Below, one piece after another: positions 24,296 to 41,586 of a stretch of DNA of 64,000 bases. Location of the stretch: the sequence record NC_100372.1. The stretch is one strand, 5' to 3'. Under the pieces are notes generated by a model. That model had not been told where the DNA came from, searched no databases, and worked only from the letters and a program-made list of their open reading frames with translations. How positions within the stretch are numbered: the stretch's first letter is position 1; each line of letters begins with the position of its first letter. This DNA comes from a phage. The position numbers and the translations under genes are program-made.

Positions 24296-26368
24296 TTATG
24301 AGAAGTCTGGCGGAACAACATCTTCTACATACCCTTTCAGAGCAACCTGCCCCATATGCAGAACAGTAGAATCTCTGGCGGTAACAGTGATGCTGTCAGA
24401 CATTACTTGCGGGTATGCCCACACATACTGTTTTACCTCAGGGTATCTATACTCTATGGTTGCCATGTTTCCGCAAATACATCTCCATAAAAATTCTTGG
24501 TAATTCCTGGTTGGGTCGTAGCCATATACCGGAGCAAGCTCTTTGCTAGGAACGAACCCTGCAAGGTATTGTATTTCAGACGGTTTCCAACCTAACTTAA
24601 CGATAGGTATGTTTACAGACTCTTTTGCCTTTTCAATACCTCCCTGCATCACCCAATCGTAGCACTCAGTGCAGAAGAAATCAAGAGCACCTGCTTCCTT
24701 TTTATATTGGTCAGCAAGGTTCAGTTTTTGCGTAAGCTCGGTTTCCATAATAGTGGGGAAAAACAGTAAAGCTGTCATCTGAGCCGATGCAGCGTGTGCT
24801 TTTATTGCCTTTGAAATGGCTGCAATACGAGCGCCAAGCTTACCACGACAAAATGCTACATACTTGTCATAAACACCGCCAGTTTTAGGATCGTCAATAG
24901 TCCCAATGTCTAGTGCATATTCACCAGTCTCATCATAAAACGCCTGCTTTGTAGGGTAGTCATAAATACAAGGCTTACGAGTATCGGTATTGAACCACCA
25001 CCACGGTTCACCAATCTGCATAATCACTGGCAGGTTGTTTCTCATAGCGGCTGATGCAAAATTCTTAAATACTGCAGTAAGGAAATTCATGCCCTCTTCA
25101 ATGGTTGGAGACAGGAGGTAACTACAAGGCGTATAGCCTGTTTTAGCATAGTTATCGTTCCAGTCTCTCTGGGTCCATTCCAACGGACAGGCATCGCTAT
25201 AAAGCTCAAAGCTTACAGACTGCATAACGTCGAAGTCATGTCGTTTGGCATTGTACATAAAATCATCATGCCATTTATAAGCTGCAGCGTTTAGAGCTCC
25301 TGTTTTGTTTATAGACCATTGGGTTCCTGACCATGTGTAGTCATAATAATGGCTCATACCAACATAATGGTTTATGGTTCCTGTATAGCCCAGACGCTTG
25401 ATATTGCTCAACACCCTTAAAGGGGATACGTTCCACATATCGTCATATGCTGTGCAGATCCCAACATCGTGTTCTTTCACCTGAATATTGTTAAGTTGCA
25501 TCATTTTCCAGCCTGTGTCCGGCTGAAGAAGATCTAGACGCAACTCACACTCTACATTTTCCGTTCTCGGGTCTGTGCTATTACCTACCCAATCTTTAGG
25601 CATAAGTGGTATTAGAATCCTTCTCACCTGCCGAGGATCAACACCCATCATGTTGTTGTTCTGGTCCATCCCGACGCAGTCCTCGAAATCAATATGAATT
25701 TCTGCAACATTCTTATCCTCTGAGATGCTGACAGCATATTGAGCTAAAGGAACATAGATGATTGTACCATCAACAAGGTCTACAGTCATAATCATCTTTT
25801 CAGGGGTGGAGAAGTTGCTGGCATTGGTTATTGACATTCTGAACCAAAGCTTGGTGTTTCTCATCTCGTAGTGATCATCAAATCCAATGCCGAAATGGTC
25901 ATACTTGTCAACTGTTTCCCAAATGCACCCAGCCATGCCCCCATATGTTCTTGACACTAAACGGTTAATACAGCAGTTATTATCCGCAACAATACAGGTG
26001 CTTTCAGTCTGCTGTGTGGTTGTAACCCAGTATCTTGGGTGAAACATTCTCTCCTCAACGGTATCCCAAGATATTCTGTCAAGATTCTCATCTGAAACTA
26101 TTGTACATTTCGCTCTTTGTGTTCCAATCATAACCCCTTGGGAGTTTGATGAAAACTCCATAAAGAAGCTTCTTGGCAACCTGTTTGGCAATTTGTCAAC
26201 AATTTCTACAGGGATCTCAATACTGGTTGCCCCAACCGGGATAGTTACATCGCCCTCAACATGATCATAATCCCTACCCGGAACTGCAGTATCCTGAACT
26301 GTGCGGTAATGAAACCGTGCAGCCATTGTAGAGTAATCACGGTAAGGTTTAAAAACAGCTGTTGCCAT
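24296..26368 (-). CDS. tail-associated protein with Calx-beta-like N-terminus and putative glycosidase-like body
   Basis: 690 aa. N-terminus PGRDYDHVEGDVTIPVGATSIEIPVEIVD is Calx-beta-like; remainder Trp/Tyr-rich, reminiscent of carbohydrate-active enzymes. Assignment by pattern only. Confidence 0.4.
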   Translation of the reverse strand: MATAVFKPYRDYSTMAARFHYRTVQDTAVPGRDYDHVEGDVTIPVGATSIEIPVEIVDKLPNRLPRSFFMEFSSNSQGVMIGTQRAKCTIVSDENLDRISWDTVEERMFHPRYWVTTTQQTESTCIVADNNCCINRLVSRTYGGMAGCIWETVDKYDHFGIGFDDHYEMRNTKLWFRMSITNASNFSTPEKMIMTVDLVDGTIIYVPLAQYAVSISEDKNVAEIHIDFEDCVGMDQNNNMMGVDPRQVRRILIPLMPKDWVGNSTDPRTENVECELRLDLLQPDTGWKMMQLNNIQVKEHDVGICTAYDDMWNVSPLRVLSNIKRLGYTGTINHYVGMSHYYDYTWSGTQWSINKTGALNAAAYKWHDDFMYNAKRHDFDVMQSVSFELYSDACPLEWTQRDWNDNYAKTGYTPCSYLLSPTIEEGMNFLTAVFKNFASAAMRNNLPVIMQIGEPWWWFNTDTRKPCIYDYPTKQAFYDETGEYALDIGTIDDPKTGGVYDKYVAFCRGKLGARIAAISKAIKAHAASAQMTALLFFPTIMETELTQKLNLADQYKKEAGALDFFCTECYDWVMQGGIEKAKESVNIPIVKLGWKPSEIQYLAGFVPSKELAPVYGYDPTRNYQEFLWRCICGNMATIEYRYPEVKQYVWAYPQVMSDSITVTARDSTVLHMGQVALKGYVEDVVPPDFS

Positions 26369-27054
26369 TAACCCTCCTGTCTAGTTGCGTTTACTGTAAT
26401 ACTTTCACAATAAATAGTTGTGGTATCCCAATCAGGTCTTACGTCAGGGACATATAACAAAGTAGCCAGCCCACCAACCCCGAACTGGTTTTCTTCCCAC
26501 ACTGATCCGAAGCCGAGAGCTGTAGAGTCCCCTTCAAAACCAAAAGCTTGCCCTTGCGACTCCGTAAGACGCAAATGACAAGGCAATGGCAGCATATCTA
26601 AGATCTGGTCGATAGACTGCAATATGTCAAAGCAAGTTTTTCTAATGTTTATGTCAAACCTGAAATTGTCACCTTTCCACGTATCGAAATTGTCTCTTCC
26701 GAACAATTGTCGCAAGGTGGAGATGACATCTTCGCGAGTCCCACCCCTTGATGCTGCTGCTTGCTGAATAACCAGGGTAGCACGAAAATCCGCATCTGAA
26801 AGCCCATTCCGAAGAATACCGAGTTGATTACCAACTTCGTCAAGGTATCTCCCGCTGGCATTGTTAAGCAATCTTCCTTCAGCCAAGCCTACCAGCATTT
26901 TATCAACATCCTCCAACCTTTTAAGGTACACGGTTAAGAATGTGACTAAATTAACCTTCTCAGCCAGAAAATCTCCAGGCAGGTAATCAAGACCTCCCTG
27001 AACAAAATCTGGCAGAGTGTGGATGTGGTTGACATCCGACTTAATCTCTGCCAT
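26368..27054 (-). CDS. baseplate/tail protein
   Basis: 228 aa; 1-nt overlap with next gene; downstream of baseplate J-like gene. Confidence 0.4.
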   Translation of the reverse strand: MAEIKSDVNHIHTLPDFVQGGLDYLPGDFLAEKVNLVTFLTVYLKRLEDVDKMLVGLAEGRLLNNASGRYLDEVGNQLGILRNGLSDADFRATLVIQQAAASRGGTREDVISTLRQLFGRDNFDTWKGDNFRFDINIRKTCFDILQSIDQILDMLPLPCHLRLTESQGQAFGFEGDSTALGFGSVWEENQFGVGGLATLLYVPDVRPDWDTTTIYCESITVNATRQEG

Positions 27055-27065
27055 ATCTCACCGCC

Positions 27066-28556
27066 TTAAATAGTTTGTTGGAAAGTTATATTACTTTCGT
27101 CTAGGTCAAACACCTCAGTCATGTTTGCAACAATATCGTTTGTAGTGTAAGCTTCATCAGAGGCTCCCACAGGTTTTACTTGAATCACAAGTCTGTTAAA
27201 TCTGCCTATTGACACAGCAGCTGATGCAGCACCAACCAATTGGATATTGTACAACGTATCTGCAACATCCAGTCCGTTAACAACCTGCAAAAGAGCCTCT
27301 ACAATGGCATCTTTTTCGGTTGTGGAAAGCGCAGCACCTGAGTAGGTAATTCTTACATCTAGGCGGTAGGTATTTGCCTTGGAGTAATAAATCCTTTCAG
27401 TCTGACCGTCTGATGTGGTAATATCGTAGAAGATATTCCCATAAGTTCTGTTTGTGCAAGCTATGGTTTGATACAGCGCCTGACAGATATCCTCTGTTGC
27501 ACCACCAAACACCACCACTTGAAACTTATAAGGTGGTATACCTTTCGCATCCGTTTTATCGGTGTTGTTAGAGAACACTCTTACTTTCTCAACACCTTTC
27601 ACCTCGCTTACAGCGCTAAGAATTGCAGGACGGGTAGCTTTAGATGTCAGCTGTTTAGTGCTGGAAGCTCTTAAGCGATACTCAGAGTCTTTCTCAACAT
27701 CCCTACCCTCATTGAATCTTTCTCGGTTGGTAAGCTTGATAAATCCACTGGGAGTAGGTGACATTGTTGTCACGGTTTCTGCCTCTCTTGACAGCTCACC
27801 AGCCTCGTTAGCGATAACATCTAGGGTGATAGTTCTTTCCCCTACAATCGGGGATACTCTGAAATCTACCCTGCTATTAAGTCCAACTTGATCAAGATTC
27901 GAATTGTACCCTATCCACAACGTCCCTGTCAACATATCTATCTGAATTAAATCATCATTCAGCAGGGTTGTATTATCGACAATGAATTGCTTAATCTCAC
28001 CGTAAAAGCTTGGCAAATCAGAAGAGTCCAGAGCCTTATCTGTTAAAACCAGACTTTTTGTTTTGATACTTCCGTCTGTCTGGTTGGTAATTTGAAAGTT
28101 GTATTTCCCAATTCTTAGGTCTGGAGCGTTTATTCTGTGAGCAATAAGATTTCCCGCCACCTGCACATCGTTGCTAAGAACAAAGTTGCCACTGTCCAGC
28201 GTATAAGTTTTGGAATCATAAATCATATTGTATGGCACAGTTGTGTTGATTGTCAACTGGCAGGTACCTGATGATTTAGAACGGCCTCTTCGGTAAATAC
28301 CCTGTCTTCCAAGAAGCTCATCCAGGTAAATACCTTCTGCCCCATACAGCGTCTGCGATGCGTATACAGATGCTGCCATAAGAATAAGTTGATACTCTCG
28401 CTCGTTGAAGATAGTGGTCAGCTTATCTGCAACGGAGTTACTCTGTACGTTGAAGTTTTCGCCAAAAGCACGGATCAGGCTTTGCTTAGTTTCAACGATT
28501 AGGTCATTTAGGGTTGGTATAACGAAACCAGCCTCTGTCAATCCATACTTAGCCAC
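27066..28556 (-). CDS. baseplate J-like protein
   Basis: 496 aa; size, position and overall composition fit baseplate wedge (gpJ / gp6-like) proteins. Low-resolution call. Confidence 0.4.
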   Translation of the reverse strand: MAKYGLTEAGFVIPTLNDLIVETKQSLIRAFGENFNVQSNSVADKLTTIFNEREYQLILMAASVYASQTLYGAEGIYLDELLGRQGIYRRGRSKSSGTCQLTINTTVPYNMIYDSKTYTLDSGNFVLSNDVQVAGNLIAHRINAPDLRIGKYNFQITNQTDGSIKTKSLVLTDKALDSSDLPSFYGEIKQFIVDNTTLLNDDLIQIDMLTGTLWIGYNSNLDQVGLNSRVDFRVSPIVGERTITLDVIANEAGELSREAETVTTMSPTPSGFIKLTNRERFNEGRDVEKDSEYRLRASSTKQLTSKATRPAILSAVSEVKGVEKVRVFSNNTDKTDAKGIPPYKFQVVVFGGATEDICQALYQTIACTNRTYGNIFYDITTSDGQTERIYYSKANTYRLDVRITYSGAALSTTEKDAIVEALLQVVNGLDVADTLYNIQLVGAASAAVSIGRFNRLVIQVKPVGASDEAYTTNDIVANMTEVFDLDESNITFQQTI

Positions 28557-28623
28557 GTCACTCCTCCGGTATGAAAATCTCTACAAGGTATTTTACCAAA
28601 TTTTGTAACAATAGTCAATCTGA

Positions 28624-28656
28624 GCATAAAAATAAACCCCGCCGAAGCGGGGCTTT
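28624..28656 (-). terminator. intrinsic terminator (RNA CCCCGC-UUCG-GCGGGG then UUUAUUUUUAU)
   Basis: Same 16-nt hairpin core as at 2501-2516; immediately downstream of stop of 28661..32806. Confidence 0.55.
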
Positions 28657-28660
28657 ACTG

Positions 28661-31600
28661 TTAGTCGTGAGACTCATTCCAAGGACCTTGGAAACTTGAG
28701 TTAGAACGACTTACAACGACTGTAGGACAAGATATTGTAATGCCTGTCACGTTCCCTGTTGACCATGGTGTGTAAATCTCGATAATAATGTCTATAGTTT
28801 GTTCATCTAGACCTGTTATCCCAACTGCACACATGCCATCGTTATCGTTTCCGTACTTCTTGCCAGCAAGTAGTTGGTGACCAGCTATCCACGCATTTAG
28901 TTGAGAGTTGGCACGAGTACCGTTCAGTTTAAAGAAGAATGTTACGTTTTTACCTTGGCCTTGCACGTTGTCCACATATCTCCACCTCCAACGGCAAACC
29001 CTTTGCTGCGAGTTATATACTGGAGCACAATCTCCGTAAGTCCTGTGTGCAACAATCGCACCTTCGAACTGGTTAGCACGGATAACGGAAGCTTCTACAC
29101 GTCCACGGAATGTACCTCCTGTTGCATCTATGGTCCCTCTAAAGCTACCATTGTTGGCATAAACATCTCCACGGAAGGTACCACTGGTGGCGTTAACTGC
29201 CCCTGTGAAGTTACCTGCACTAGCGTTGATGTTACCTTTCACCCACACATCCATAAACTGGGCGTGCCCGTTCTTGTTAATATACCAACCGTATTTGTGG
29301 TACCCGTTGCCATCGTAGTTGTTTGACGAAATTTCTTGCGCGATCTTGGCAGAAGAGATCGTGCCGTTCTCTATAAAAGCGTCTTTCAAGAACGCTTGGT
29401 TGTTCTTGATTGCGAAAGCAAGGGTTGCTGTTCCATTGCCTGGGTTGTATACCGCAAAGTTGTTTGCGCTAACCATGAAATATGACTGAACTTGGCCTCC
29501 AGAGCCTTCCATGCCTAACTGGATACCTGCCACATACTTATTCCCTGCGGAGTCTACCTGTATTTTTGTGCCCCATTGAGCATTTACTTTGCCCTCTAAG
29601 TCGGTCACAGCCTTAGATGTTGTAGCCACTGCAGCTCTGAGTTCGGTCACATCTCCAACATCATCAATAATCTCCTGCTTAGCAACAGCAAGTTCTTGAC
29701 GAATAGCTGACGCTGTGCCATTAATAAGGTCAACAGTAGACTTATTAGTTTCAGAAATATTCGCAGACAATTCTTTCTTAGTCTGAGTCAGCTTATTATC
29801 CAACCCGGTAATGTTATTGGTGTTGGTTGTAATCTGCCCTTTAGCAGTGGTTAACTGCTCAGTCAAAGCTGCCGTTTTCTGATTCAATAGGTCAGTTGTG
29901 GCCTTGTTGGTGGTAGAAATCAACGTATTAAGATCAGACTTGGCGGTGTTTATCTTACCATCAAGCGTGGTGTAGTTTTTGGACACTGTGGCGTTGGTCT
30001 GGCTAATCTTCTGGTCAAGAGTCTCAGAAGTTCTGTTCAGCAAGTCCACAGTGGCCTGGTTAGTGCTCAGAATGCTCGCATCCAACTCAGATCTTTGAGT
30101 ATTCAACTTGCCCTCTAGGCTCTTATCACCAGCCAGATAGCCTTTTTCAACATCTCCGATCTGCTCAGTCAACTCTCCCTGTGCAGCAACCAGTTTTTCA
30201 TCCAACGCCTCTGTTTTCTTATTAAGAAGATCAGTGGTGGATTTGTTGGTTGACTCAATCAAGGATGATAGTTTAGCACTCTCATTCTGCAGGTTGTTGG
30301 TCAACTCACCTTTCGCTGCTGTCAGCTTATTGTCTAAAGCCTCGGTTTTCCGATTAAGGAGATCTGTAGTCGTTTTATTGGTTGAAACAATCAGAGAGTT
30401 CAGCTCAGAGCTTTCCTGTGCCAAAGCATCTTCCAATTCACCCCTTGTTGAAACAATCTTCTCGTCCAAAGCTTCGGTTTTCTGATTTAACAGATCGGTT
30501 GTAGCTTTGTTAGTGGTCTGTATTAGAGAAGTCAGCTTACCACTTTCTTTAGAAAGATCATCTGCAAACTTGTTCTGAGTGGCTACCAGTTTCTGGTCTA
30601 GAGTGGTAAGCGTTCCATTAACGTCCTGGAAGTTGTCGTGGGTTTCTTGGATGAATATTCCAACCCTATCCCCCAACTGAGCATACAGCTTGTCTACTCT
30701 AGAGAACTCACCTTCCATGTGGTCAAAAGCCTCGTCAACTCTACCATCCATGTACCTGTTAAGTTCTGTGACACGATTTTCAACCTCTTCGATAGAGGAA
30801 TCTAAAGTGCTCATCAACTCTTTATAAGTTTCTGTCTTTTTAAATTCAGCATCTATCTGAGGCATCAAATCTTCAATAGAGGTGTAGCAGCGTGCAGCGC
30901 ATTCTATAAACTGAGAACTACCAAAAGCGTTTGTGGTTCGAATATACCAATAATAGATCTTATCATTCTGCAGACCTTCAGATGTCCAAGTTGAACCAAC
31001 ACCCATACGAGTGGCTTTTGAAGTAACGGTTGCATCACTTGTGTCTGGCAGCCTTGTCATACCAGATGTCCAAAAGTCATACTGGGTGCTTACACTTGCT
31101 AAGTCCCTGCTGTGCGGAATCAAGGTGATAGCAAAGTATCCCTGCTTAACTTCTACAGAAACCGGAGCTTCAGGTGCCTGAATGTTAAACTCGCAGTAAG
31201 CTTCTGGAGATACACCACCTTTATAAGATGTTGCAACCACGGTTGCTGTGTATGATCCTTTGGTCAATCCTTCTACACGGACAAACTGCTCAACTGTCTG
31301 TGCTGTCCAAATAATCTCTCCGTTCTTTCTTACCTGCACAATATTTTGAGCATAAGTTCCAACGTTGTCCCAAGCCAAAACACCATGAGTTACTTCCCCA
31401 GCTTGAAGAACAGAGTATCTGAAGTTTTGCGGTTGAGCTACGCCGGACGGGGATATCGGAATATCCACATCTCCAGAATCCGGAAGTTGCCCTGTGGCAT
31501 CATTCCACTCTTTAGCATCTTGACGGAGTTTTACCTTGACACCGCCCTTTTTGGTGAACTCCCACTCAAGAACCCTCATTTCTTGGCCCACTATACCAAT

Positions 31601-32806
31601 ACTTGGAAGGTCCATCGTAACGTAACGCCCAGGCTTAAATTTAAAACCCCGCATATTGCAGGTTACTTCAATAATCCTACCAGCTCTGGCACGTCTTAAG
31701 AAGATTGCAGAAACACGCTGAGCTTGATAAGGACTGGTAACAAAGCGATAATCTATATCGATTATCTTTCTTTCTCCATCCTTCTCTATCCACTCTGGGA
31801 CAAACACTGATGGAAAATCTGTTTCAGAATACCCTTTAGCCGGACTAGTGAATCTGCCAGTTATTGTGTTGGATCTTTTGTCGAAGGAGGCTTCAGGATA
31901 GATCTTAACCTCACCGCAAACACAGTCCTCACTCAGTGTCATTGTTGCCGGGCCATAGTATGCACCTACCAGCAGACCATATTTGCCAGCTACATAGCTA
32001 AGGTCTGCACCACAAGCTTTCAGCATCTCTGCCATAATGCTTGCTGGTGCTTCATCCATGTCGAACTCGCCATTAATGGTGTAACGGCGCTCACTGGTTC
32101 CGTCCGCGTTTTTTACAGCCTCGTCGCATATGTTGGCAGCTTCCTTGAAGGACTCCCAGTTGATGGTTTCGTCAGGACATTTAAGGTACGTTCTTAGGTA
32201 GTCCAGAATCACCAGGGCAGCGTTATTGGTATGCACCTCTTTACTGATACGAGGATCATAACATTTTTTACCAACCTTGACGAGTGTAACGTTTGGCAAC
32301 CCAAAAGGAAACTTGTTAGGGTCAAACTTGAAGCTGGCACGTAGCCAACTGATCCCTCTACCTATCATGTCCGGTGTCCACGAAGGGCAGTGTGTGCCCA
32401 TGAAAGGATCAGAGGTTTTTCTGTCGTTATGTAGCTCCCAAGATACCAAATCTCCATATGAGGAAATAGGATTACCGTCGATAAGTATATCTTCTATACC
32501 TTCCAAGGGATGATTGGCAAGAACAATAGCACAATGAAGGGTTCTGTCCCTGTCCTGCTCCAAAAACGCAAGCAATCCAGATGTGCGTGTCTTCCCATAC
32601 ACTACAGAGCAAGGTGCAGCAGAAGATCTGAGAAGCTTTTGTCTATCTTGCTGACTTCTGTAAGATTTGTTACCTTCGAAAATCTTATCCAAGGTTCTGG
32701 TGGTAACAGTGTTCAGGCTGTCAGCCAGAGCTGCCTTGGATGCGTTCCAGTCATAGCTCGAAGATCTTGCAGAAGCAACGATGTTATCAATCATTGCAAT
32801 TGGCAT
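28661..32806 (-). CDS. large tail/baseplate protein with repeated coiled-coil segments
   Basis: 1381 aa; about eight repeats of TTDLLNQKTEALDEKL-type ~35-aa units in the middle; beta-rich C-terminus; N-terminal third resembles phage central-fibre / host-specificity proteins. Confidence 0.5.
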   Translation of the reverse strand: MPIAMIDNIVASARSSSYDWNASKAALADSLNTVTTRTLDKIFEGNKSYRSQQDRQKLLRSSAAPCSVVYGKTRTSGLLAFLEQDRDRTLHCAIVLANHPLEGIEDILIDGNPISSYGDLVSWELHNDRKTSDPFMGTHCPSWTPDMIGRGISWLRASFKFDPNKFPFGLPNVTLVKVGKKCYDPRISKEVHTNNAALVILDYLRTYLKCPDETINWESFKEAANICDEAVKNADGTSERRYTINGEFDMDEAPASIMAEMLKACGADLSYVAGKYGLLVGAYYGPATMTLSEDCVCGEVKIYPEASFDKRSNTITGRFTSPAKGYSETDFPSVFVPEWIEKDGERKIIDIDYRFVTSPYQAQRVSAIFLRRARAGRIIEVTCNMRGFKFKPGRYVTMDLPSIGIVGQEMRVLEWEFTKKGGVKVKLRQDAKEWNDATGQLPDSGDVDIPISPSGVAQPQNFRYSVLQAGEVTHGVLAWDNVGTYAQNIVQVRKNGEIIWTAQTVEQFVRVEGLTKGSYTATVVATSYKGGVSPEAYCEFNIQAPEAPVSVEVKQGYFAITLIPHSRDLASVSTQYDFWTSGMTRLPDTSDATVTSKATRMGVGSTWTSEGLQNDKIYYWYIRTTNAFGSSQFIECAARCYTSIEDLMPQIDAEFKKTETYKELMSTLDSSIEEVENRVTELNRYMDGRVDEAFDHMEGEFSRVDKLYAQLGDRVGIFIQETHDNFQDVNGTLTTLDQKLVATQNKFADDLSKESGKLTSLIQTTNKATTDLLNQKTEALDEKIVSTRGELEDALAQESSELNSLIVSTNKTTTDLLNRKTEALDNKLTAAKGELTNNLQNESAKLSSLIESTNKSTTDLLNKKTEALDEKLVAAQGELTEQIGDVEKGYLAGDKSLEGKLNTQRSELDASILSTNQATVDLLNRTSETLDQKISQTNATVSKNYTTLDGKINTAKSDLNTLISTTNKATTDLLNQKTAALTEQLTTAKGQITTNTNNITGLDNKLTQTKKELSANISETNKSTVDLINGTASAIRQELAVAKQEIIDDVGDVTELRAAVATTSKAVTDLEGKVNAQWGTKIQVDSAGNKYVAGIQLGMEGSGGQVQSYFMVSANNFAVYNPGNGTATLAFAIKNNQAFLKDAFIENGTISSAKIAQEISSNNYDGNGYHKYGWYINKNGHAQFMDVWVKGNINASAGNFTGAVNATSGTFRGDVYANNGSFRGTIDATGGTFRGRVEASVIRANQFEGAIVAHRTYGDCAPVYNSQQRVCRWRWRYVDNVQGQGKNVTFFFKLNGTRANSQLNAWIAGHQLLAGKKYGNDNDGMCAVGITGLDEQTIDIIIEIYTPWSTGNVTGITISCPTVVVSRSNSSFQGPWNESHD

Positions 32807-33243
32807 TAATACCTCCAGACATCAACAACGATAGAATCTTTCATGTCGAACATAAAGATCCCTTTATCACCTTTCGCCCAAATCTGATTGTTCCAGAACA
32901 CACCAGCGGTGAGCCCGTTCAGACCTTCGAAAATAACAATATCGCCACGCTGAACCTGTTTAGGAGTATCCAGTCGAGTCAAAAAGAGATCAAAAATAGT
33001 AGGCAGATGTGTGGTTTTGAAACGAAGCATGCACCATCTCTTGCTTTCCAACTCTGTTTTATACGTTCCTTCAAAGTTAGAAAGAAAATCTGTTCCGTAT
33101 TGGGCATCAACACACTTAGCCGCAAAAGTGCAGCAATCGTGGAATCCCCATTCAAACGGGACGGTGGCTTCTTCGTCAAACACTTTCCACAATCTTTCTT
33201 GCCAGTCCACTAAACGAGGGTGTGTGCTCATTAAACCTCCCAA
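32806..33243 (-). CDS. small tail-associated protein
   Basis: 145 aa; 1-nt overlap with downstream large gene. Confidence 0.35.
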   Translation of the reverse strand: MGGLMSTHPRLVDWQERLWKVFDEEATVPFEWGFHDCCTFAAKCVDAQYGTDFLSNFEGTYKTELESKRWCMLRFKTTHLPTIFDLFLTRLDTPKQVQRGDIVIFEGLNGLTAGVFWNNQIWAKGDKGIFMFDMKDSIVVDVWRY

Positions 33244-33797
33244 ATGATCGGGCGGCTTGCCACCTGATCCACATATTTAAAAAATCTGTCATTATCGTTT
33301 CTTGAGCTATGGCTCTCCTCTGTGTATCGATAAGGAAAACCTCTTAACCAGCTGTTGAAGATGGAAGATATGGATATGGACAAAGCACTATTCTCCCCTG
33401 TCTGAATAGCCATGTCTGTTATAAGGCCGTCAAACAAGCCATTGGTTGTAACAGGTAAACCATTCTCCATGGCTGTGATATACAACGTGGCACGACAACC
33501 CGAATACTCTGTCTTCAGCAGATCACCTACATACTTGGGATCAAACCCGTTCAATGTTGCTACCACAGACCCAAAGTTGGTGGCATCTTTCTCAGATACA
33601 GCAGTCAATGTTGCTGATCCCCCTATCCCTATAAAATGTTGCCCCTCAATCACCACAACACCAGTTCCTGAGCACACCCTAACAGTCCCTGTTGGTAGCT
33701 CTAGCTTTGCAGCAATTAAGATCTCAACACTATCAAGCTCCAGCTTTTCAAGAAATAAATTATCTAATGGCGCTCTAATCATCTTAGAAATCCTCAA
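33231..33797 (-). CDS. tail/baseplate protein
   Basis: 188 aa; overlapping-stop coupling with neighbours in structural module. Confidence 0.4.
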   Translation of the reverse strand: MRISKMIRAPLDNLFLEKLELDSVEILIAAKLELPTGTVRVCSGTGVVVIEGQHFIGIGGSATLTAVSEKDATNFGSVVATLNGFDPKYVGDLLKTEYSGCRATLYITAMENGLPVTTNGLFDGLITDMAIQTGENSALSISISSIFNSWLRGFPYRYTEESHSSRNDNDRFFKYVDQVASRPIIWEV

Positions 33798-34374
33798 AGA
33801 AGTTGATAACTATATTATCACCTTTTTGCATAGCATCGACTTTTTGCTTAATTTTATAAATATCCCTGATATGAAACCTACCCTTTGGGGATTGAGTTAT
33901 TATCTTCATAGTGTCCCCTGCGGCAATAGGTTTTCTAAGTCTTGGAGATATGCTTATAACAGCAGACCCAACACCATCGCTGCGCACTGGAGCTGTTACC
34001 ACTTTCAATTCATCGTTAACAGATATTTTATCCCCAGCTCTAGCTATGTCTCTGTTTGGCTCCCATCCGACCGTCTTCAAAAAATCGTCGTTACCAGTAG
34101 GCCCAAGGGCGATTGGCTCATTAGCTGTTACTGAGTGACCGTACGTTTTAATAAGAAAAATGTTCCCATCTTTATACACCTGATCAACAAAGCTCTTAAG
34201 CTCTAGCAGCTGTGACTCGCTGATATTGGAAACCGTCAAAGTGCCTTTCCAGTTAGGTGTGGCATAGGTCACTTTTTGCGTTTTACCTGTAAACGGACTT
34301 TTAAACGTAACAATATCTGCCAGCAGCTCCAATCTGATGTCTGGAAGGTATCTAGGCCTTTCCCATAAAAACAT
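33784..34374 (-). CDS. tail/baseplate protein
   Basis: 196 aa; in structural module. Confidence 0.4.
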   Translation of the reverse strand: MFLWERPRYLPDIRLELLADIVTFKSPFTGKTQKVTYATPNWKGTLTVSNISESQLLELKSFVDQVYKDGNIFLIKTYGHSVTANEPIALGPTGNDDFLKTVGWEPNRDIARAGDKISVNDELKVVTAPVRSDGVGSAVISISPRLRKPIAAGDTMKIITQSPKGRFHIRDIYKIKQKVDAMQKGDNIVINFFEDF

Positions 34375-34435
34375 TGTGCCTCCAGGTTAAACAATCATGA
34401 TAGTTATTTTACCAGATTTTGAGTTAATACGCAAT

Positions 34436-34466
34436 ACAAACAAAAAGCCCCCGCCGAAGCGAGGGC
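34436..34466 (-). terminator. intrinsic terminator (RNA GCCCUCGC-UUCG-GCGGGGGC then UUUUUGUUUGU)
   Basis: Variant of the CCCCGC-UUCG-GCGGGG core, downstream of stop of 34474..38283. Confidence 0.5.
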
Positions 34467-34473
34467 AAAACAG

Positions 34474-37400
34474 TTACTTCAGTTTCTCTTGCAACCCAGT
34501 AACAACCTCTGTCAATTTTTTAACCTGCTCCTCAAGGGAGGTTATTTTATCATCCTGTTCCCTACAAACTTGGACAAGCAAGCCTGTCACAGCTGCGTAG
34601 TCAACATTATAGAATCTTTCCTCGGTCATCAGAGGAATACCATCTTGAGTAGAACCAGGAACCTCTTTCCTTTTCACGAAAGAACCAACCGCTTCAGGTA
34701 ATGCTTCCATAACCTCTTGAGCAATTACCCCCGCGTGAGGCATACCATTCTCTTTTAGAGTGTAGGTATAGCCCTTCATCTTACGGATAGCTTCCAGCGC
34801 GTTAGGAATAACCTCTATGTTATCCTTCAGGTCTCTATCAGAGCTCTGGCTCACAGTGGTGCACTCAACTACACCGTTGACAGCAAAATATCTTGACTTA
34901 GCCTCGTCTGCCCTAGCCCCGCAGTGGAATACCCAACTAGCAGAAGAAGAGTTGTCGTTTATCTGAAACTCAAGAACGTTCTTCCTGTCTGCGCCGTTAC
35001 CCCAATAGTACATTCTACCTGAATTGGCGGGTAAGTTATCGGCGTTACTAGAAAGACTGTTAGCACCGACATGAATTTCCAGTTGATTACTGGTTTCACC
35101 AAAAGTGTAATTAGGTCTTAACTGGATGCCCTTACCAGCATCGTGTCTCCATTCTTCCCAAGTAAAGACATCGCCAACGTAGTTACCAGCACGAGTATAT
35201 CTGTCACCAAAATAGGTGATATATTCCTGCACACAACCTTGAGGTCTGTTAGCTGTGTTTTTGTAAACAAGCAGTGTACCAGCGTACGGAGCAGGGTAGT
35301 GGCGATCTATTACAAGTGCGTCAGCGTTTGAACCTTGGTGATAGAAACCTTCACGGCTACCATCATAGGCATTAAGGTCTTCTGTCCCCAGACCTTGACC
35401 ACGGTGCTGAATAACTTTGTTCCACGCCCTGTGGTTACCACCCTCAATAGATCTGGTGTATAACTGATCAAGGCGACCAGCCATTTGGAAAGCATAGTTT
35501 CCAGAAAACGCCACAGACAGTCCACCAACAACCATCGAACCTTCTGGCCCGTTGACGTTGCCAGCCATTATTTTTGACGGGTTATTAGGCCCGAACTGGT
35601 TGTTCCAGTCTCCACCAGTATGACATACAAAACCACCAGGGGCTGAGAAAGTACCATCTTTGTTGAAGTTGTAGAATCTGTGAGCGGAACCTACAACATC
35701 ACGAACAATAACTTGACCAGCTTCTGGAGTAGACCTGAACTCTGCTTGGCCTTGAAGGCCAGCACCATTACCGCATTTAGAGGTAAACGTGCCGTTAGTT
35801 AGATCCTCTGTTCCGTCAGATGCACACTGGAACCCTGCATTAGAGAATAACGCCTTTCTAGGACTGCCGTAGCACAAATAGTCAAGACCGTCTGCCCACA
35901 GCTCGACTTTAGGCATGTTCGTTTTGCTCATCACTGCATAGCGTTCAGGAGTCCCCAGGTAGTGCCACATAGTTCCACCACCAGTGTAGAAACCTGATGT
36001 TCCTTTGAACTCAACCAGAGGTCTGGTGTTTGTTACATCATCACCTTTGATTGCAAGACTCAAATCTGCAGATTCCAGAGGAGCACAGAACTTGACACCA
36101 TCTTGGTTACCTGTCACGTTGCCTACTTGCCAATCAGCCTCCCTGGTTGACACTTCTATTACAGTAGCGCCAGCATATACTGTAACAGGGAATGCACGTG
36201 CCTCTACATAGAATGCAACATACTCCTGCTTACCTCTGGTTGGAGATACACATCCGAGGATTGCTCTCTCGTTTTGGTAGAAATTAATAACCCCTTGGAA
36301 AGAATCACCTCTGTCCGTCCAGCCACCAGTTCTGTAGTGACACTGTAGTGTAGCACAGTTCATTGGGTCGCCGCCAGAAGAAGATCTGGTGACAATGGTT
36401 AAATCTGTCCCGATAGTTGCTGCAAAGTTGGGGTCAGTTCTGACGATAATAGGATAATACTTACCGTCCTGCATAGCTGCAGTTCTGGGCAGGTTTACAT
36501 ATGGTCTAGCGCCTGCTGCCAGAGGGATTCTGAATTGTGCTTGAGCATCCCCTACAGTCCTGGCACTGGTACCACCACAAGCTATCGGTAGTGGTTCCCA
36601 TTTGGCTTTCCGGTTGTTATAAACACCCCACTCAAGCGTTCCTTCACCTTGCTCGTCCATACCGCCATCCCAGATGACCATCTTGGCGGCTTTCTTAGAT
36701 CCCCAGAAACCTCTTTCTGCCCTTGAACTGCGGATCCATTCTCCAAGTCCCCAGTTTGCCAGCTGACCGTTCAGATCACCAACCTGCATATATTTAGGAC
36801 AATCTAAGACCCCATCCTCGCGGAAGCCTAAATATCTATGAGTTTCAGATCCTTTTGCGCCTTTGTGCAGGTGGATTGTCAACCAAGCCTTATTGTCGTT
36901 TCTTACCTCAGAGTAGATCCTATACCCATGCTCAAGGACACCGTCAGCGCTGTATTTGTCCCCGTTAACAATACCTGATGCCGACTTAACATCAGCCGAG
37001 CTTTGAGACAGGTAAAGGTGCCCGAAGGTAGGAGAATTCCTAGACCCAAGACCGATGTGCGATCTAAAGGTCTCATCGTTACGAGGTCTGACCATCGGCT
37101 GCCATGCAGTCCACTGGTTTGTGTTGGCCTGATAGGTTCTCAAATACCAAACATCTACGTTAGAGAATGGGTAGTATTCCTGACGACAGCCTGTACCGCC
37201 GTTAGCATTGTTCTGCCAGACAATCAAGTGACCAGCACCAGAACCTGCAGGGTAACCATTTGCCTCAGTTGCATAAGCAGTCATCGGCTGGTAGTATATA
37301 CCATCCTGATTACCAGTCAAGTTATTGATATTAAAATTTGACTCAAGGGCTGCACGTTGCTTATAGAAAGCCCCTAAATTAATGCGTGCACCTGCGGCAT

Positions 37401-38283
37401 CTCTGGCCCCTGTACCGCCCTGCTCTATAGCAAGAGGTTGCCACGAGGCTGTTTGTTGGTTCCACATACCCCAACGGCCTGTTGCATCAAGCTGCAAGTA
37501 CCCTGCCGTGTTTAAATCATCTCCGGCACGGATAACTGTTCTTGTTGGGTTGTTTGCCTCCAGGCGTTTAAATTCGTCACGAAGTGCTATTCTTTTTGTT
37601 GTTGCTACACCGTTGGCTACTGCAATGGTATACATGGCTCCGGAGGTAGCGCCACGGAAAATGCCATCAACAGTTGTAGTATCACGACGAGATACCACAC
37701 CGTTCAGAAATTTTTCACCCGCCGCTTCAGAAGGGTAGTTAGTAGTTCTTCCCTCTTCAATAACTGCAGGACCAACAAAGTTGACAAGGTGAATAACATC
37801 GCCTACAGTATGCACTGTGCCAAAATCTACCCGCTGTGCAAGTGCTTTAGCATCGTTGGCTGTCTGAACAGTAACATCCATTACATCCTGGACAGACTGC
37901 CCTTCGGCTGTCATGATCATAGATGCGCCAATGGTAGACTCCAGCTCCTCCCTTAAGGACGGATCTGTATATACCATCCACGCAGCGTCAGTAATCCCAC
38001 CGTCAGAATATGGTGAAGACAGTGCAGGGACAGTGTGTGGAAATTCGCCTTTCCAACGCAGGTATAGATCTTCCTCTTCGAAGTAGGCAAAATCCATTGG
38101 GCCGTTTAACTTACCACCTTCCTTAAAGGAGATTACATGAGAAACAGTCCCATCCACATGGACAACATCGCCAATTTTCACACGACGGGTCAGGTCTGGT
38201 TGTTGAACAACCAGGTAATCATCCTCTGTCACTGCGGTAGTGGCAGGAAGAGATTCAATTCTGACAACTTTAATATCAGCCAT
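34474..38283 (-). CDS. long tail fibre protein
   Basis: 1269 aa; first ~90 aa shared with the 222-aa protein at 40918..41586 (DD(F/Y)LVV-Q-D-TR-KI-DVV ... EGG ... FAY); remainder Gly/Asn/Thr-rich. Confidence 0.5.
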   Translation of the reverse strand: MADIKVVRIESLPATTAVTEDDYLVVQQPDLTRRVKIGDVVHVDGTVSHVISFKEGGKLNGPMDFAYFEEEDLYLRWKGEFPHTVPALSSPYSDGGITDAAWMVYTDPSLREELESTIGASMIMTAEGQSVQDVMDVTVQTANDAKALAQRVDFGTVHTVGDVIHLVNFVGPAVIEEGRTTNYPSEAAGEKFLNGVVSRRDTTTVDGIFRGATSGAMYTIAVANGVATTKRIALRDEFKRLEANNPTRTVIRAGDDLNTAGYLQLDATGRWGMWNQQTASWQPLAIEQGGTGARDAAGARINLGAFYKQRAALESNFNINNLTGNQDGIYYQPMTAYATEANGYPAGSGAGHLIVWQNNANGGTGCRQEYYPFSNVDVWYLRTYQANTNQWTAWQPMVRPRNDETFRSHIGLGSRNSPTFGHLYLSQSSADVKSASGIVNGDKYSADGVLEHGYRIYSEVRNDNKAWLTIHLHKGAKGSETHRYLGFREDGVLDCPKYMQVGDLNGQLANWGLGEWIRSSRAERGFWGSKKAAKMVIWDGGMDEQGEGTLEWGVYNNRKAKWEPLPIACGGTSARTVGDAQAQFRIPLAAGARPYVNLPRTAAMQDGKYYPIIVRTDPNFAATIGTDLTIVTRSSSGGDPMNCATLQCHYRTGGWTDRGDSFQGVINFYQNERAILGCVSPTRGKQEYVAFYVEARAFPVTVYAGATVIEVSTREADWQVGNVTGNQDGVKFCAPLESADLSLAIKGDDVTNTRPLVEFKGTSGFYTGGGTMWHYLGTPERYAVMSKTNMPKVELWADGLDYLCYGSPRKALFSNAGFQCASDGTEDLTNGTFTSKCGNGAGLQGQAEFRSTPEAGQVIVRDVVGSAHRFYNFNKDGTFSAPGGFVCHTGGDWNNQFGPNNPSKIMAGNVNGPEGSMVVGGLSVAFSGNYAFQMAGRLDQLYTRSIEGGNHRAWNKVIQHRGQGLGTEDLNAYDGSREGFYHQGSNADALVIDRHYPAPYAGTLLVYKNTANRPQGCVQEYITYFGDRYTRAGNYVGDVFTWEEWRHDAGKGIQLRPNYTFGETSNQLEIHVGANSLSSNADNLPANSGRMYYWGNGADRKNVLEFQINDNSSSASWVFHCGARADEAKSRYFAVNGVVECTTVSQSSDRDLKDNIEVIPNALEAIRKMKGYTYTLKENGMPHAGVIAQEVMEALPEAVGSFVKRKEVPGSTQDGIPLMTEERFYNVDYAAVTGLLVQVCREQDDKITSLEEQVKKLTEVVTGLQEKLK

Positions 38284-38297
38284 TCTTTCTCCTGAAA

Positions 38298-38314
38298 GGG
38301 GGCAAACAGCCCCC
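38298..38314 (-). other. GC hairpin (GGGGGC-loop-GCCCCC) immediately upstream of the RBS of 34474..38283
   Basis: 6-bp GC stem followed on the minus-strand transcript by only UUU, then SD AGGAG and the start codon; may act as a weak terminator or processing signal. Confidence 0.35.
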
Positions 38315-38318
38315 TATG

Positions 38319-40916
38319 TTAAAGGTACAATCCACGGTATTGAGCATAAAGGCCAAGACCGCGAAGGATTTCGCCAGAGTGATAGCCTACCGGATCAGAA
38401 ACTGCCCAGCAGCCATTTAAAACATTATCCCCATTAATAAAGTGGTGCTTTTGCAGTAGCTTCATACAGGCTTCTACAACAATATCTATTTGAGGTATTG
38501 TTTCTGAATACCCGCACAGACCTAGCCAGCAGCAACCTGCAAGCCATTCACCTACCACCCACATCCTATCTCCTCTATCTTGATAAGAGTATCCACCAGA
38601 GGTGTTAAAGTCTGTAGGCAAATTTCCTGAATGGGATGACTGGAATCTGTTGAGGAACCATGCCCATTTCTGGCAGAACAGGAACAGTCTTTCATCAACA
38701 GGCTCTTTATGTTTCTTGAGCTCATATATTGTGCGGCACGCAGCAACAAAAGATCTTGACTGGAGCTTAGAGTTATCTACCATCTCCCACCAACCAGTCA
38801 ACCCTTCATTACCTCTTTGCCATACATAACGTGAGGCAACTGGACCCTCTGTCTTAAATGTATTGTTATACCAGACTTGAGAGTCATACAGAAAGCCTAT
38901 TGTATTTGACAATCTATGGCGGTCTATGTTTTCTGCACCCATGCAGTAGACTGCTGGGTATTGCATACCAGGACAGGGCCAACTTGGCCTTTCCTCTAAG
39001 AGATAATTTTCCTTATCTATCACCTTTCCGGCAGGGAACACACCTGGGGTGTGCCTGTAGGCACCTTGCTTGTAGTTTCTGACATAGCAATCACCAACCT
39101 TGGCGGTTGATTCTGTCTTGCTTGCCATCCATACGCTAAACCAGATTAGATAAGCATCCCTATCTGCAACATAAAATTGCGGCAGTGTGTTGACGCAATA
39201 CAGATCGAACAAGCCATTACCTATCTGCCTGTCGCTCAGACTGAAATCTACAGAGGTAATTCCTTTAGGGTTAGCAAAGAAAGGTTTAATCTCATCTTCT
39301 GTGTGATGAGGTTGTGTTGGGTCTAGTTTAAAATCACCTAGGGTAAGAGTTTCTGTTACCCATTGCCCGTTAGTGGCATATAGATCAGCATACCATAACC
39401 AACGGTCTTTGTCAAGAAATTTGACCCTTACCATCTCATCATCTGATCGATAAGTCACTGAGTTTAAAGAAATCTCTCTTCCAAAATTGAAAGTTACTTT
39501 GCCTCTTACTATATTGCAACGGGTGAAGTTGTCGGAGTGGTTGTAAATGTCGGTACCATACTGCATACTGACACTCGCGCCACCGCTTACGGTAATGTTT
39601 TCCTCTTTTGGCAAGAGATACGGGTTACCGTCTTTACCAACCACCTCCACGAAATCGGTGACCTTGGCAACTGTCTCTGTTACCTCTGCCCCTCCAAAAG
39701 GGACCCCTATCCTATACTGTTTTTTGTTATTGTTGCCATCATTAAGGATGAAATGTGGCTGGAACAGGACCCCTTCTCCTCCAAAATTCATAACAATTTC
39801 GGCATCTCTGCCTATTTTGTATGTAGTCCCTTTTTGGATTATTTCGCAAGGCTGGCGTGCGTTCATTCTAAAATTGATATATCCGTCACTATCCCTACTC
39901 ATGACAGGTACTGTTCCTGCAACTAGACAAGCGCCATCTGTGAACGGGGCCTTAATCAACGTGGTCTTTCTGAACAGCTTGTCGTAGGCATTTATATCAC
40001 TAAAATTAAGCAACTTATTGTAAGACTGCTTAAACGCGGTGTAATACTTTTCCTCACCTGTCAGGGTGTAGAGTTGATAACAAGCGTCACACCACATCTC
40101 TTCCCCATCTAACTCTGGGGCTTGATTGTCTGCAACCACGTTTATAGGATTTACAATTACAGGGGATCCAGCAGGTATCACCGATCCGCCCTGCTCTTGA
40201 GGCAATCTCACACAATAGGTAACCTTGTGGTTGCCTGTAACACCCTTATCTTGCAGTTGGATTGTGCCGAACTCTGCAGACGTATGACCACTGTCGGCTA
40301 TGCTACCGTTGGCCCAATAGCGGTTACCATCCCATGCTATATACCACTCAACCCACCAACTTAATCCGGAAGTTGTCCAATTAGGATTAGCATCTGTGCC
40401 GCCGTAAACATCAGAGTCTACAGTGTTTCTTCCTAAAACACCGTTATACGCCTGAAAAGCCTTGTCCAAGTATTCTCCCCATGTCGGGGATCCTGCTGGG
40501 ATTTTTCCTCTACCTTTGTTAAAAGACACAACCACATCTTTAAACCCACCATGTGATGGAACTCCATCTGTGGATAACGGGTAGTGGGACAATCTTTGCA
40601 TTTTACTTTCTACTGCATATACTCCCAGAAGATGACTGTTGTAGGCTTCCCAAGCCTCTTTGGCCCTGTCCAGATAAAAATCGCTTTTTGATGCCCTGTA
40701 TGCCTCAATGTATCCCAGAATCAACACAGCTTGGGACTCATGCATTGCCCAATCATTATTTATCTTACTTCCTGACCAACCTGACGCTATAAGTCCATCC
40801 TGGTTTACCAGTTTGTTCTGTGTAGGGAGATTGGTAATACCTGTGTTGTTATCGAGGCACTTCCTGTGCCCCTCGATCATCTGAAATACGTTATCAATGT
40901 TGTGTTGAATACGCAT
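38319..40916 (-). CDS. putative polysaccharide-degrading tail protein (alpha/alpha-toroid-like composition)
   Basis: 865 aa; Trp/Tyr-rich with helical-repeat-like N- and C-terminal regions (AWEAY, GEWLAGCCWLGLCGY); lacks the shared fibre N-terminal anchor. By-eye assignment. Confidence 0.4.
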   Translation of the reverse strand: MRIQHNIDNVFQMIEGHRKCLDNNTGITNLPTQNKLVNQDGLIASGWSGSKINNDWAMHESQAVLILGYIEAYRASKSDFYLDRAKEAWEAYNSHLLGVYAVESKMQRLSHYPLSTDGVPSHGGFKDVVVSFNKGRGKIPAGSPTWGEYLDKAFQAYNGVLGRNTVDSDVYGGTDANPNWTTSGLSWWVEWYIAWDGNRYWANGSIADSGHTSAEFGTIQLQDKGVTGNHKVTYCVRLPQEQGGSVIPAGSPVIVNPINVVADNQAPELDGEEMWCDACYQLYTLTGEEKYYTAFKQSYNKLLNFSDINAYDKLFRKTTLIKAPFTDGACLVAGTVPVMSRDSDGYINFRMNARQPCEIIQKGTTYKIGRDAEIVMNFGGEGVLFQPHFILNDGNNNKKQYRIGVPFGGAEVTETVAKVTDFVEVVGKDGNPYLLPKEENITVSGGASVSMQYGTDIYNHSDNFTRCNIVRGKVTFNFGREISLNSVTYRSDDEMVRVKFLDKDRWLWYADLYATNGQWVTETLTLGDFKLDPTQPHHTEDEIKPFFANPKGITSVDFSLSDRQIGNGLFDLYCVNTLPQFYVADRDAYLIWFSVWMASKTESTAKVGDCYVRNYKQGAYRHTPGVFPAGKVIDKENYLLEERPSWPCPGMQYPAVYCMGAENIDRHRLSNTIGFLYDSQVWYNNTFKTEGPVASRYVWQRGNEGLTGWWEMVDNSKLQSRSFVAACRTIYELKKHKEPVDERLFLFCQKWAWFLNRFQSSHSGNLPTDFNTSGGYSYQDRGDRMWVVGEWLAGCCWLGLCGYSETIPQIDIVVEACMKLLQKHHFINGDNVLNGCWAVSDPVGYHSGEILRGLGLYAQYRGLYL

Positions 40917-40917
40917 C

Positions 40918-41586
40918 TTAGATAGCTCCTGCGATGATCAGTGCCCCGTACCAAGTTAGTCCATTATCATATGTTTCCAACTTGAAAATGTCTGTTGCAC
41001 CAGCTGTAAATGTTAGGATAGGATCTCTTCCGTAGGCCCATTTAACATTGTCAGGCCAATAAACTTTGTTACCACCAGAGGTCTGCGTTATGCATACAGT
41101 TATAGTTCTTGCCACTCCGTCGAGCCCTTCTGTTTGATTTTCAAAAGAGATTGTGGTGTTTGAAGTGAGCCGAACTTTAAACGTGTCTGCAACGTCAAGA
41201 TCCATGTCAAGTTGACCACCAATAGAGCCGTAATCAACTATCCTACCTGAAGAAGTTGCAGCAAGCTCTCCAAAAACAGACCATGCTTTTGCAGACACAC
41301 CTCCGGCACCCTCTACAGTGGAATCTGGGAGGATTATTTTAGGATAATCTCCATTCCATGTGTAGTAGCGCTTAGTTTCCGGATCATAAGCAAAATCCTT
41401 CTTGCTCTTAAGATAACCGCCCTCTGTGAAATAAACTATTTTAGTAATGCTAAGATCATTGACAACATCATCAATCTTAGCCTTTCTTGTCCCGTCAGTC
41501 TGGTTGACAACCAAGAAGTCATCACTCAAGACTGTTTCTGCATCTTCAAGATCTGGGATTGGTATTGTAGGATAAGCTACAGCCAT
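40918..41586 (-). CDS. tail protein sharing the fibre N-terminal anchor domain
   Basis: 222 aa; N-terminus aligns with that of 34474..38283. Confidence 0.45.
   Translation of the reverse strand: MAVAYPTIPIPDLEDAETVLSDDFLVVNQTDGTRKAKIDDVVNDLSITKIVYFTEGGYLKSKKDFAYDPETKRYYTWNGDYPKIILPDSTVEGAGGVSAKAWSVFGELAATSSGRIVDYGSIGGQLDMDLDVADTFKVRLTSNTTISFENQTEGLDGVARTITVCITQTSGGNKVYWPDNVKWAYGRDPILTFTAGATDIFKLETYDNGLTWYGALIIAGAI

Follow-up and report, generated by a model that had tools for sequence, protein, structure and literature searches.

Two proteins in the tail and baseplate module of a Vequintavirus

The DNA analyzed here (64,000 nucleotides of phage sequence record NC_100372.1, the whole of which we call the window) belongs to a Vequintavirus, an rV5-like Escherichia coli myophage, and has an uninterrupted tail and baseplate module on the minus strand. 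Sheath, tube and baseplate genes of a contractile tail are all present. We focused on two proteins, A and B, which an earlier reading of the DNA without database searches (the sequence-only reading) had singled out as enzyme-like tail proteins. Both open reading frames lie where that reading had placed them, at the two ends of a 16.6-kb span that contains eight further tail and baseplate genes:

24296..26368, minus strand: protein A, 690 aa, ATG start, orthologue of rV5 gp34 and phi92 gp142
38319..40916, minus strand: protein B, 865 aa, ATG start, orthologue of rV5 gp42 and phi92 gp141

The span is 92-97% identical at the nucleotide level to more than 100 Vequintavirus genomes. Orthologues in over 100 deposited genomes have 97-100% identity to A and B. 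Phage vB_EcoM-ECP26 has a protein with 100% identity to A, and phage S127 BCL3 one with 99% identity to B. Synteny and size identify A as rV5 gp34 and B as rV5 gp42 (same lengths, near-identical sequences). The phi92 proteins are more distant, with 42% identity over the full length for gp142 versus A, and 34.5% for gp141 versus B. In phi92, the genes are adjacent (gp140-141-142-143), whereas in the window A and B are 12 kb apart and are separated by a fiber gene, a lambda-J-like block and wedge genes.

That both genes are embedded in the tail module is borne out by synteny with annotated relatives and by the detection of the rV5 orthologues in virion proteomics. In the rV5 tables, gp34 has the entry '690 aa, structural protein (MS evidence), Calx-beta' and a peptide coverage in virions of 10.3%. 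The entry for gp42 is '865 aa, tail associated protein', and the text of the rV5 paper names gp42 among the virion-detected proteins. The noted richness in tryptophan and tyrosine is real, if modest (8.4% in A and 8.6% in B, versus 3.5-7.7% for most neighboring tail genes). Cysteine is also about twice as frequent (2.3% in A and 2.1% in B) as in neighboring tail proteins, most of which have roughly 0.5-1.4%.

Protein A combines beta-sandwich domains with a glycosidase-type barrel

Profile matches and an AlphaFold2 model divide protein A into three domains:

26084..26368, minus strand: A residues 1-95, Calx-beta-like Ig-type domain (PF03160 match, all-beta in the model)
25517..26047, minus strand: A residues 108-284, beta-sandwich domain (Pfam NCTSP_N, PF23844; 48.1 bits, E 1e-12)
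24389..25474, minus strand: A residues 299-660, (beta/alpha)8 barrel (TIM-barrel_NCTSP profile and AlphaFold2 model)

The Calx-beta-like head described in the sequence-only reading probably holds up. The PF03160 match (residues 17-91) has 25.6 bits, slightly below the cut-off of 27; the phi92 orthologue gp142 scores 38.1 bits, above the cut-off, and Calx-beta is also listed in the precomputed Pfam matches of homologue P0008 and in the annotation of rV5 gp34. The barrel profile PF23845 (TIM-barrel_NCTSP) matches residues 299-658 with 269.2 bits (cut-off 27). Protein A therefore passes the cut-offs of 27 for both PF23844 and PF23845, which makes it a member of the N4 gp64/gp65 family, and so does phi92 gp142 (75.5 and 274.9 bits, respectively). 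NCTSP_N is also present in an N4-type gp65 (residues 57-130).

The model of A, built from a 56-sequence alignment, has a mean predicted local distance difference test score (pLDDT) of 94.6; in it, an eight-stranded (beta/alpha) barrel comes after two beta-rich domains. The modeled barrel can be closely superposed on that of PgaB/BpsB, the fold of glycoside hydrolase (GH) family 153, and its structural neighbors are all glycosidase TIM barrels. As far as the model goes, the barrel of A is thus GH153/GH42-like.

Bacterial homologues of the beta-sandwich-plus-barrel module (P0035-P0127), from Sphingomonadales and other alphaproteobacteria, are mostly fused to DUF2460/TIGR02217. DUF2460 is the distal-tail-protein domain of gene-transfer agents. 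The A-type module would then be an accessory of tail tips that is common far outside the phages of E. coli.

Invariant residues line the C-terminal face of the barrel

Among homologues that are only 27-30% identical, a small set of residues is invariant: Y308-D309-D310 after beta1, H334 and G337-M338-S339(-H340) at beta2, E388 at beta3, G453-E454-P455-W456-W457-W458 at beta4, and E568-x-Y570 at beta6. In the model, every one of them is at, or just past, the C-terminal end of a barrel strand. The C-terminal face is the substrate-binding side of TIM-barrel enzymes. The catalytic residue of GH18 and GH20 barrels that matches D474 of GH153 lies after beta4. In GH153, the functional residues are D326/D328, D364, the catalytic pair H473-D474, and E585, and in superpositions D474 falls on the catalytic Asp of DspB and on that of a GH18 chitinase (PMC5933820). 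By analogy, D309/D310 and E454 of A would occupy positions that correspond to GH153 functional residues. Two differences are apparent. First, the Asp of an H-D pair is catalytic in GH153, whereas A has a Glu, in G-E-P-W-W-W after beta4, without a preceding His. Second, GH153 (PgaB/BpsB's C-terminal domain, a hydrolase of deacetylated poly-N-acetylglucosamine) is a component of periplasmic biosynthesis, whereas A is a virion protein.

The BASEL genomes and later papers label A as having 'glycosidase and deacetylase domains' or a 'poly-GlcNAc deacetylase domain'. The deacetylase label appears to be a naming artefact, because PgaB as a whole carries the RefSeq name 'N-deacetylase and beta-1,6 glycoside hydrolase', but the match is to its C-terminal hydrolase domain. 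No Pfam deacetylase (CE4/NodB) matches A at E<=1, and the fold is an eight-stranded TIM barrel with only glycosidases as neighbors. A polysaccharide deacetylase, which the BASEL annotation would have A be, is thus effectively refuted at the level of the fold, and we give it hardly any probability.

Protein A is homologous to the N4 sheath proteins

The relation of A to phage N4 is one of homology across whole domains, not of convergence. Searched with phmmer, A matches the solved N4 gp64 with E 1.4e-24 (about 26% identity), and gp64 retains the invariant residues of A. Foldseek aligns A to gp64 with a TM score of 0.63, and to gp65 over 645 columns. The beta-sandwich and first barrel strands of A match gp65, and its barrel matches gp64. 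The architecture differs: in the podovirus N4, gp64 and gp65 are separate chains that together build a sheath of six-fold symmetry around the tail tube, with gp64 as the minor subunit of this non-contractile sheath (PDB 9lc0_M, 9yf4, 9yf5), whereas A is a single chain with an additional Calx-beta domain in a contractile-tailed phage that lacks an N4-type sheath.

In the N4-type phage AlfredRasser (gp65/gp64, L006:2502-7936), the TIM-barrel_NCTSP profile is found in complementary pieces (gp65 4-46, gp64 60-347), and BLASTP matched only the beta1-alpha1-beta2 segment of the barrel of A in gp65. A split barrel, i.e. one N4 barrel made from two chains with A as the fused form, was considered and is disfavored by the Foldseek alignment and by MAFFT, which aligns 'GGLWWW' of gp65 with 'GEPWWW' of A. 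The same two observations indicate that gp65 probably has a diverged barrel of its own.

The homology has a counterpart in host genetics. Maffei et al. noted the homology to N4 gp64 as well as a dependence on wecB in common (PMC8594841). Sellner et al. showed a need for wecB and nfrB, though not for the rest of the enterobacterial common antigen pathway, in Vequintavirinae, phi92-like phages and N4, which points to the NGR exopolysaccharide (PMC8669472). Genome-wide transposon-mutant fitness screens (RB-TnSeq) assigned NGR to Vequintavirus and Justusliebigvirus, and in the same study the phi92 gp142 homologue was named NGR-binding protein, with a conserved 'GMSHY' k-mer in common with N4 gp65 (bioRxiv 10.64898/2026.04.02.716166). 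We find GMSHY to be invariant throughout the Pfam family, including proteins of Sphingomonadales and Deinococcus, many of them fused to DUF2460. This family-wide invariance marks GMSHY as a signature of the fold rather than an NGR-specific determinant.

Protein B is a six-hairpin barrel split by beta-rich inserts

Protein B matches no Pfam family and, by sequence, no entry of the PDB. Its PHROG is 2871 ('tail protein'). The family of B is large (387 representative clusters at 50% identity, 524 phage records) and is found in Vequintavirus, phi92/phAPEC8-like, Rosemountvirus, SPN3US-like jumbo, Erwinia, Vibrio and Aeromonas phages, and in lambda-like siphophages. A profile restricted to the barrel matches the GH76 structure 4v1r (E 1.9e-8), two more GH76 chains (about 2e-5) and cellobiose 2-epimerases (4e-4). 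Family profiles also match 'six-hairpin glycosidase' and LanC-like proteins, in all cases through the repeated hairpin motif, and two family members match Pfam GH76. Taken with the structural model, these matches point to a barrel of the six-hairpin (alpha/alpha)6 type into which two beta-rich stretches are inserted, around residues 101-257 and 313-639 (roughly 160 and 330 residues). With this qualification, B is an (alpha/alpha)6 barrel with the fold of the six-hairpin glycosidase superfamily. The parts in question are:

40617..40916, minus strand: B residues 1-100, first barrel helices (3-23, 59-76, 79-97)
39981..40145, minus strand: B residues 258-312, helical hairpin (helices 269-286, 289-306)
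39000..39980, minus strand: B residues 313-639, large beta-sandwich insert(s), all-beta, best modeled at 440-580 (pLDDT 82-90)
38322..38999, minus strand: B residues 640-865, six C-terminal barrel helices (663-687, 716-735, 742-761, 787-800, 809-825, 843-860)

Across 58 divergent members, the conserved polar residues of B are E60, Q62, D270, D678, Q680, Y683 and E849, and most of them belong to recognizable motifs. The first, (T/S)-E-G-Q, reads H-E60-S-Q62 in the window (E60 and Q62 each in 52/58 members), and its hairpin is the one that matches GH76 and cellobiose 2-epimerase. The second, N-A-x-D-A-E-x-W, reads P-E-L-D270-G-E-E-M, with D270 in 54/58 and W274, here a Met, in 51/58. The C-terminal helices carry F-L-Y-D678-S-Q680-x-x-Y683 and E849, with Q680 in all 58 members, D678 in 45 and E849 in 53. 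A conserved 'LAGCC' motif is also present in B. The large insert is matched by PHROG 23426 (residues 482-580); a profile of this domain found nothing in the PDB, and a weak CBM11 match in another search (E 0.3) was not reproduced.

No specific GH family could be assigned to B. By eye, the motifs (T/S)EGQ, AxDAExW and YD(S/A)QxxY resemble TTSE55GQ, ASD116GDVW and SYD243 of E. coli BcsZ (GH8), in which E55, D116 and D243 are catalytic. The hhalign comparison with BcsZ gave a probability of 0.2%, and the profile searches gave no GH8 match. Nor does B match significantly any single family among the six-hairpin glycosidases (GH48 and GH8 of clan GH-M, GH76, GH88/GH105) and AGE-type epimerases. Unlike these enzymes, B has a barrel that is split by two large beta-rich inserts, and it is a part of the virion whose gene has an obligate partner.

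Considering A and B together, the structure searches returned no beta-helix among their matches for either protein: A is a beta-sandwich plus TIM barrel, B an alpha/alpha barrel with beta-sandwiches. Judged by the models, neither is a fiber or a beta-helix tailspike, and both are globular proteins built on folds of carbohydrate-active enzymes, as the sequence-only reading had supposed by eye. A purely structural fold devoid of catalytic residues was looked for and not found; both proteins keep acidic residues at the positions typical for the active sites of their folds.

Protein B is paired with an adaptor-like gene

The gene directly upstream of B is the orthologue of rV5 gp43 and phi92 gp140:

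40918..41586, minus strand: gp43, 222 aa, B upstream partner, Tail_spike_N plus a C-domain of about 110 aa

Its N-terminal domain matches Pfam PF18668 (Tail_spike_N, residues 51-104), and its N-terminal 100 or so residues are 38% identical to the N-terminus of the 1269-aa fiber gp41. The C-domain (40921-41259, about 110 aa) occurs in 524 phage records, as many as B, and the counts per genus agree closely (C-domain versus B: Escherichia 239 and 242, Salmonella 99 and 101, Vibrio 58 and 62, Erwinia 33 and 33, Campylobacter 23 and 23, Cronobacter 12 and 12). It is directly next to B in every record compared (S127 BCL3, brorfarstad, SPFM17, ECO340P1, phi92, siphophage KLB24 and Rosemountvirus swi3; examples of the C-domain locus are L003:11522-11995, L007:4990-5967 and L008:5336-5959). 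The adjacency thus holds across Vequintavirus, phi92-like, Rosemountvirus, SPN3US-like and lambda-like phages. We infer a two-gene, mobile appendage cassette, in which an adaptor with variable N-terminus docks on the virion and its constant C-terminus holds B.

The Pfam family of the N-domain shared by gp43 and gp41 is named for the tail spikes TSP1 and Gp66. gp41 itself (34474-38283, minus strand, 1269 aa) has the Tail_spike_N-homologous N-terminus and a C-terminal Peptidase_S74 intramolecular chaperone. The shared N-domain suggests that gp43 and gp41 dock on equivalent sites of a branched fiber network. The gp43-gp42 cassette is also a candidate for the densities of 'fiber II' and of the fiber I arm, to which the phi92 cryo-electron microscopy study assigned no proteins.

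Proteins A and B are conserved while fibers vary

The counterparts of A and B in other Vequintavirus genomes share 97-99.9% identity with them, similar to hub, spike and wedge proteins, whereas identity among Vequintavirus is 70-99% for the J-like protein and 85-93% for the large fiber. This is in agreement with Maffei et al., who found only the three largest fiber genes to vary (PMC8594841). Many of the related phages were isolated on E. coli K-12. The conservation of A and B next to varying fibers fits a conserved target such as NGR, and not variable capsules.

This pattern bears on the proposal of the sequence-only reading that A and B may be two glycan-degrading depolymerases, which would imply hosts with a capsule or complex O-antigen. 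The host inference is not supported, as A and B are conserved like the baseplate core while fiber genes vary, and the A orthologue has been tied to NGR (PMC8669472; bioRxiv 10.64898/2026.04.02.716166). Of the depolymerase proposal, the glycosidase-type folds stand, within the reliability of the models, and the variable capsule or O-antigen target finds no support. The proposal in its full form, with A and B as active depolymerases on variable capsules or O-antigens that add two host-range activities to those of the fibers, would fit the conserved acidic residues on both folds, the 'Swiss army knife' of glycan-hydrolyzing tail proteins described for relatives (PMC8594841), the entry of phi92 gp141 and gp142 as 'glycosidase' in a published table (PMC5380687), and some database records that name A 'baseplate protein with EPS depolymerase activity'. 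We nevertheless regard it as improbable. Host-range depolymerases vary between isolates, whereas the near-identity of A and B includes many phages isolated on K-12, which has neither capsule nor O-antigen; the trimeric beta-helix build of known capsule and O-antigen depolymerases is seen in neither protein; and the genetics point to the conserved NGR.

Sugar binding is favored, catalysis is less certain

We consider it likely that A and B are conserved virion components, each with a glycosidase-type sugar-binding pocket at the baseplate periphery, and that their targets are conserved. Gene identity, domains, folds, conservation and the gp43-B pairing come from the present analysis, and virion presence and the NGR dependence of relatives from the literature; our deductions concern the binding groove, possible hydrolysis, contact between gp43 and B, and where the proteins sit at the baseplate. 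Most likely, A would recognize, and possibly trim, the conserved NGR exopolysaccharide (made by NfrB/WecB and exported by NfrA). The binding site would be the groove at the C-terminal face of the barrel, with D309/D310, H334/H340, E388, E454 and E568. From a presumed place at the baseplate periphery, A would make the first, reversible contact through NGR, by which the short tail fibers would be brought to the lipopolysaccharide core. gp43 would dock through its Tail_spike_N domain, either on the baseplate or on the fiber network, and bind B with its C-domain; B in turn would bind, and may hydrolyze, a second conserved glycan.

A number of observations weigh against this reading. For A, sequence does not place the barrel in GH153 (7% identity, and an insignificant hhalign result against E. 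coli PgaB). The alignment of A homologues has no conserved acid after beta7, so that A is not a canonical clan GH-A enzyme, and a canonical clan GH-A, GH18/20 or GH13 catalytic constellation was not found in A. The link of A to NGR is a correlation between a shared domain and a shared host-gene dependence in relatives. For B, the model is moderately confident (mean pLDDT 63.7, predicted TM score 0.50, 9-sequence alignment), as word-index homologue searches gave only 7-8 proteins, and the resulting shallow alignment limited model quality. Also, of 49 positions with at least 85% conservation elsewhere in the family, the B of the window retains only 33, versus 49/49 in the phi92-like homologue. 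The 16 positions lost in Vequintavirus include five aromatic residues as well as an Asp and a His; W274, Y622, F629, Y651, D703 and W715 are gone, and so are two conserved loops. The Vequintavirus protein is also shorter than the phi92-like homologue. With a third of the family-conserved residues missing, its pocket may be re-specialized, or partly degenerate and non-catalytic. The contact of gp43 with B is derived from gene linkage alone, and the phi92 cryo-electron microscopy study neither considered nor located gp141 and gp142. Finally, the conserved pocket residues of both A and B are compatible with binding as much as with catalysis.

Several of these points would be accounted for if A and B were pseudo-enzymes, with glycosidase folds that serve as lectin-like receptor-binding modules or as fiber-network adaptors and cleave no bond. 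This is a serious possibility, though one that we do not favor. It would agree with the lack of a recognizable canonical catalytic pair in the A family and with the roles of N4 gp64 and gp65, which are structural sheath subunits, with gp65 also the receptor-binding protein (PMC13434306); in the alignment, gp65 does not conserve the equivalents of E388 and E454 of A. The lost positions of B, its constant pairing with an adaptor-like partner, and the fusion of B-type modules to tail-tip proteins (for example, gpL-like and hub domains) point the same way. Yet the strict invariance of carboxylates at the catalytic face of A, among homologues of such low identity and including the bacterial fusions to distal tail proteins, exceeds what binding usually needs, and the acid/base candidates E60, D270 and D678 of B are kept even in the divergent Vequintavirus lineage.

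A more far-reaching version of the sugar-binding reading would make gp43-gp42 (phi92 gp140-gp141) a self-contained, horizontally mobile appendage, present in more than 500 genomes with all three tail morphologies, B the founder of a new GH family with carbohydrate-binding-like inserts, and A an NGR-cleaving founder of a second family near GH153, with A and the gp43-gp42 pair together filling the 'fiber II'/proximal-arm density. All of this together is rather unlikely.

Relation to previous annotations

An enzyme-like nature of these tail proteins had already been annotated in the phi92 table (PMC5380687) and in the BASEL genomes. The proteins of the window differ very little from sequences deposited long ago, for which a putative role as tail proteins of the glycosidase type was on record, and A had been assigned as NGR-binding protein (bioRxiv 10.64898/2026.04.02.716166), so that the finding as such is not new and the basic picture in the literature stays unchanged. 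Our analysis adds the correction of the deacetylase label, N4 homology rather than convergence, the family-wide occurrence of GMSHY, the split six-hairpin architecture of B and its degeneration in the Vequintavirus lineage, and the gp43-gp42 cassette. rV5-like and phi92-like phages are popular candidates for therapy and biocontrol, with a broad host range that is credited to their multivalent set of tail proteins. For host-range engineering and receptor prediction, it should be useful to treat gp34 as a GH153-like barrel related by descent to N4 gp64/gp65 rather than as a deacetylase, GMSHY as a family signature, and gp42 together with its adaptor gene.

Other features of the module

A siphovirus-like tail-tip block lies within the contractile-tail module (28661-34374, minus strand) and is absent from the corresponding phi92 region. 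It encodes a lambda-J-like protein of 1381 aa (Pfam Phage_Tail_Tip, Ig_J, Ig_J_second), a protein with DUF6950 (32806-33243), a tail protein of 188 aa and, with 196 aa, a 'distal tail protein' (PHROG 1302). No other gene in the module varies as much as the J-like one.

A third tail protein, of 581 aa and outside the 16.6-kb span (19153-20898, minus strand), has the BASEL label 'lateral tail fiber protein with glycosidase domain' and no Pfam match. Over its N-terminal 325 residues, it resembles a 'putative tail fiber protein' of solved structure (PDB 9cuy_g/9mjn, E 3.4e-78).

About 20 records named 'Campylobacter phage' (MG065644-MG065690), which give Campylobacter jejuni as the host, share 92-98% identity with E. 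coli Vequintavirus throughout the module. The host attribution of these records looks doubtful, or the preparations may have been contaminated.

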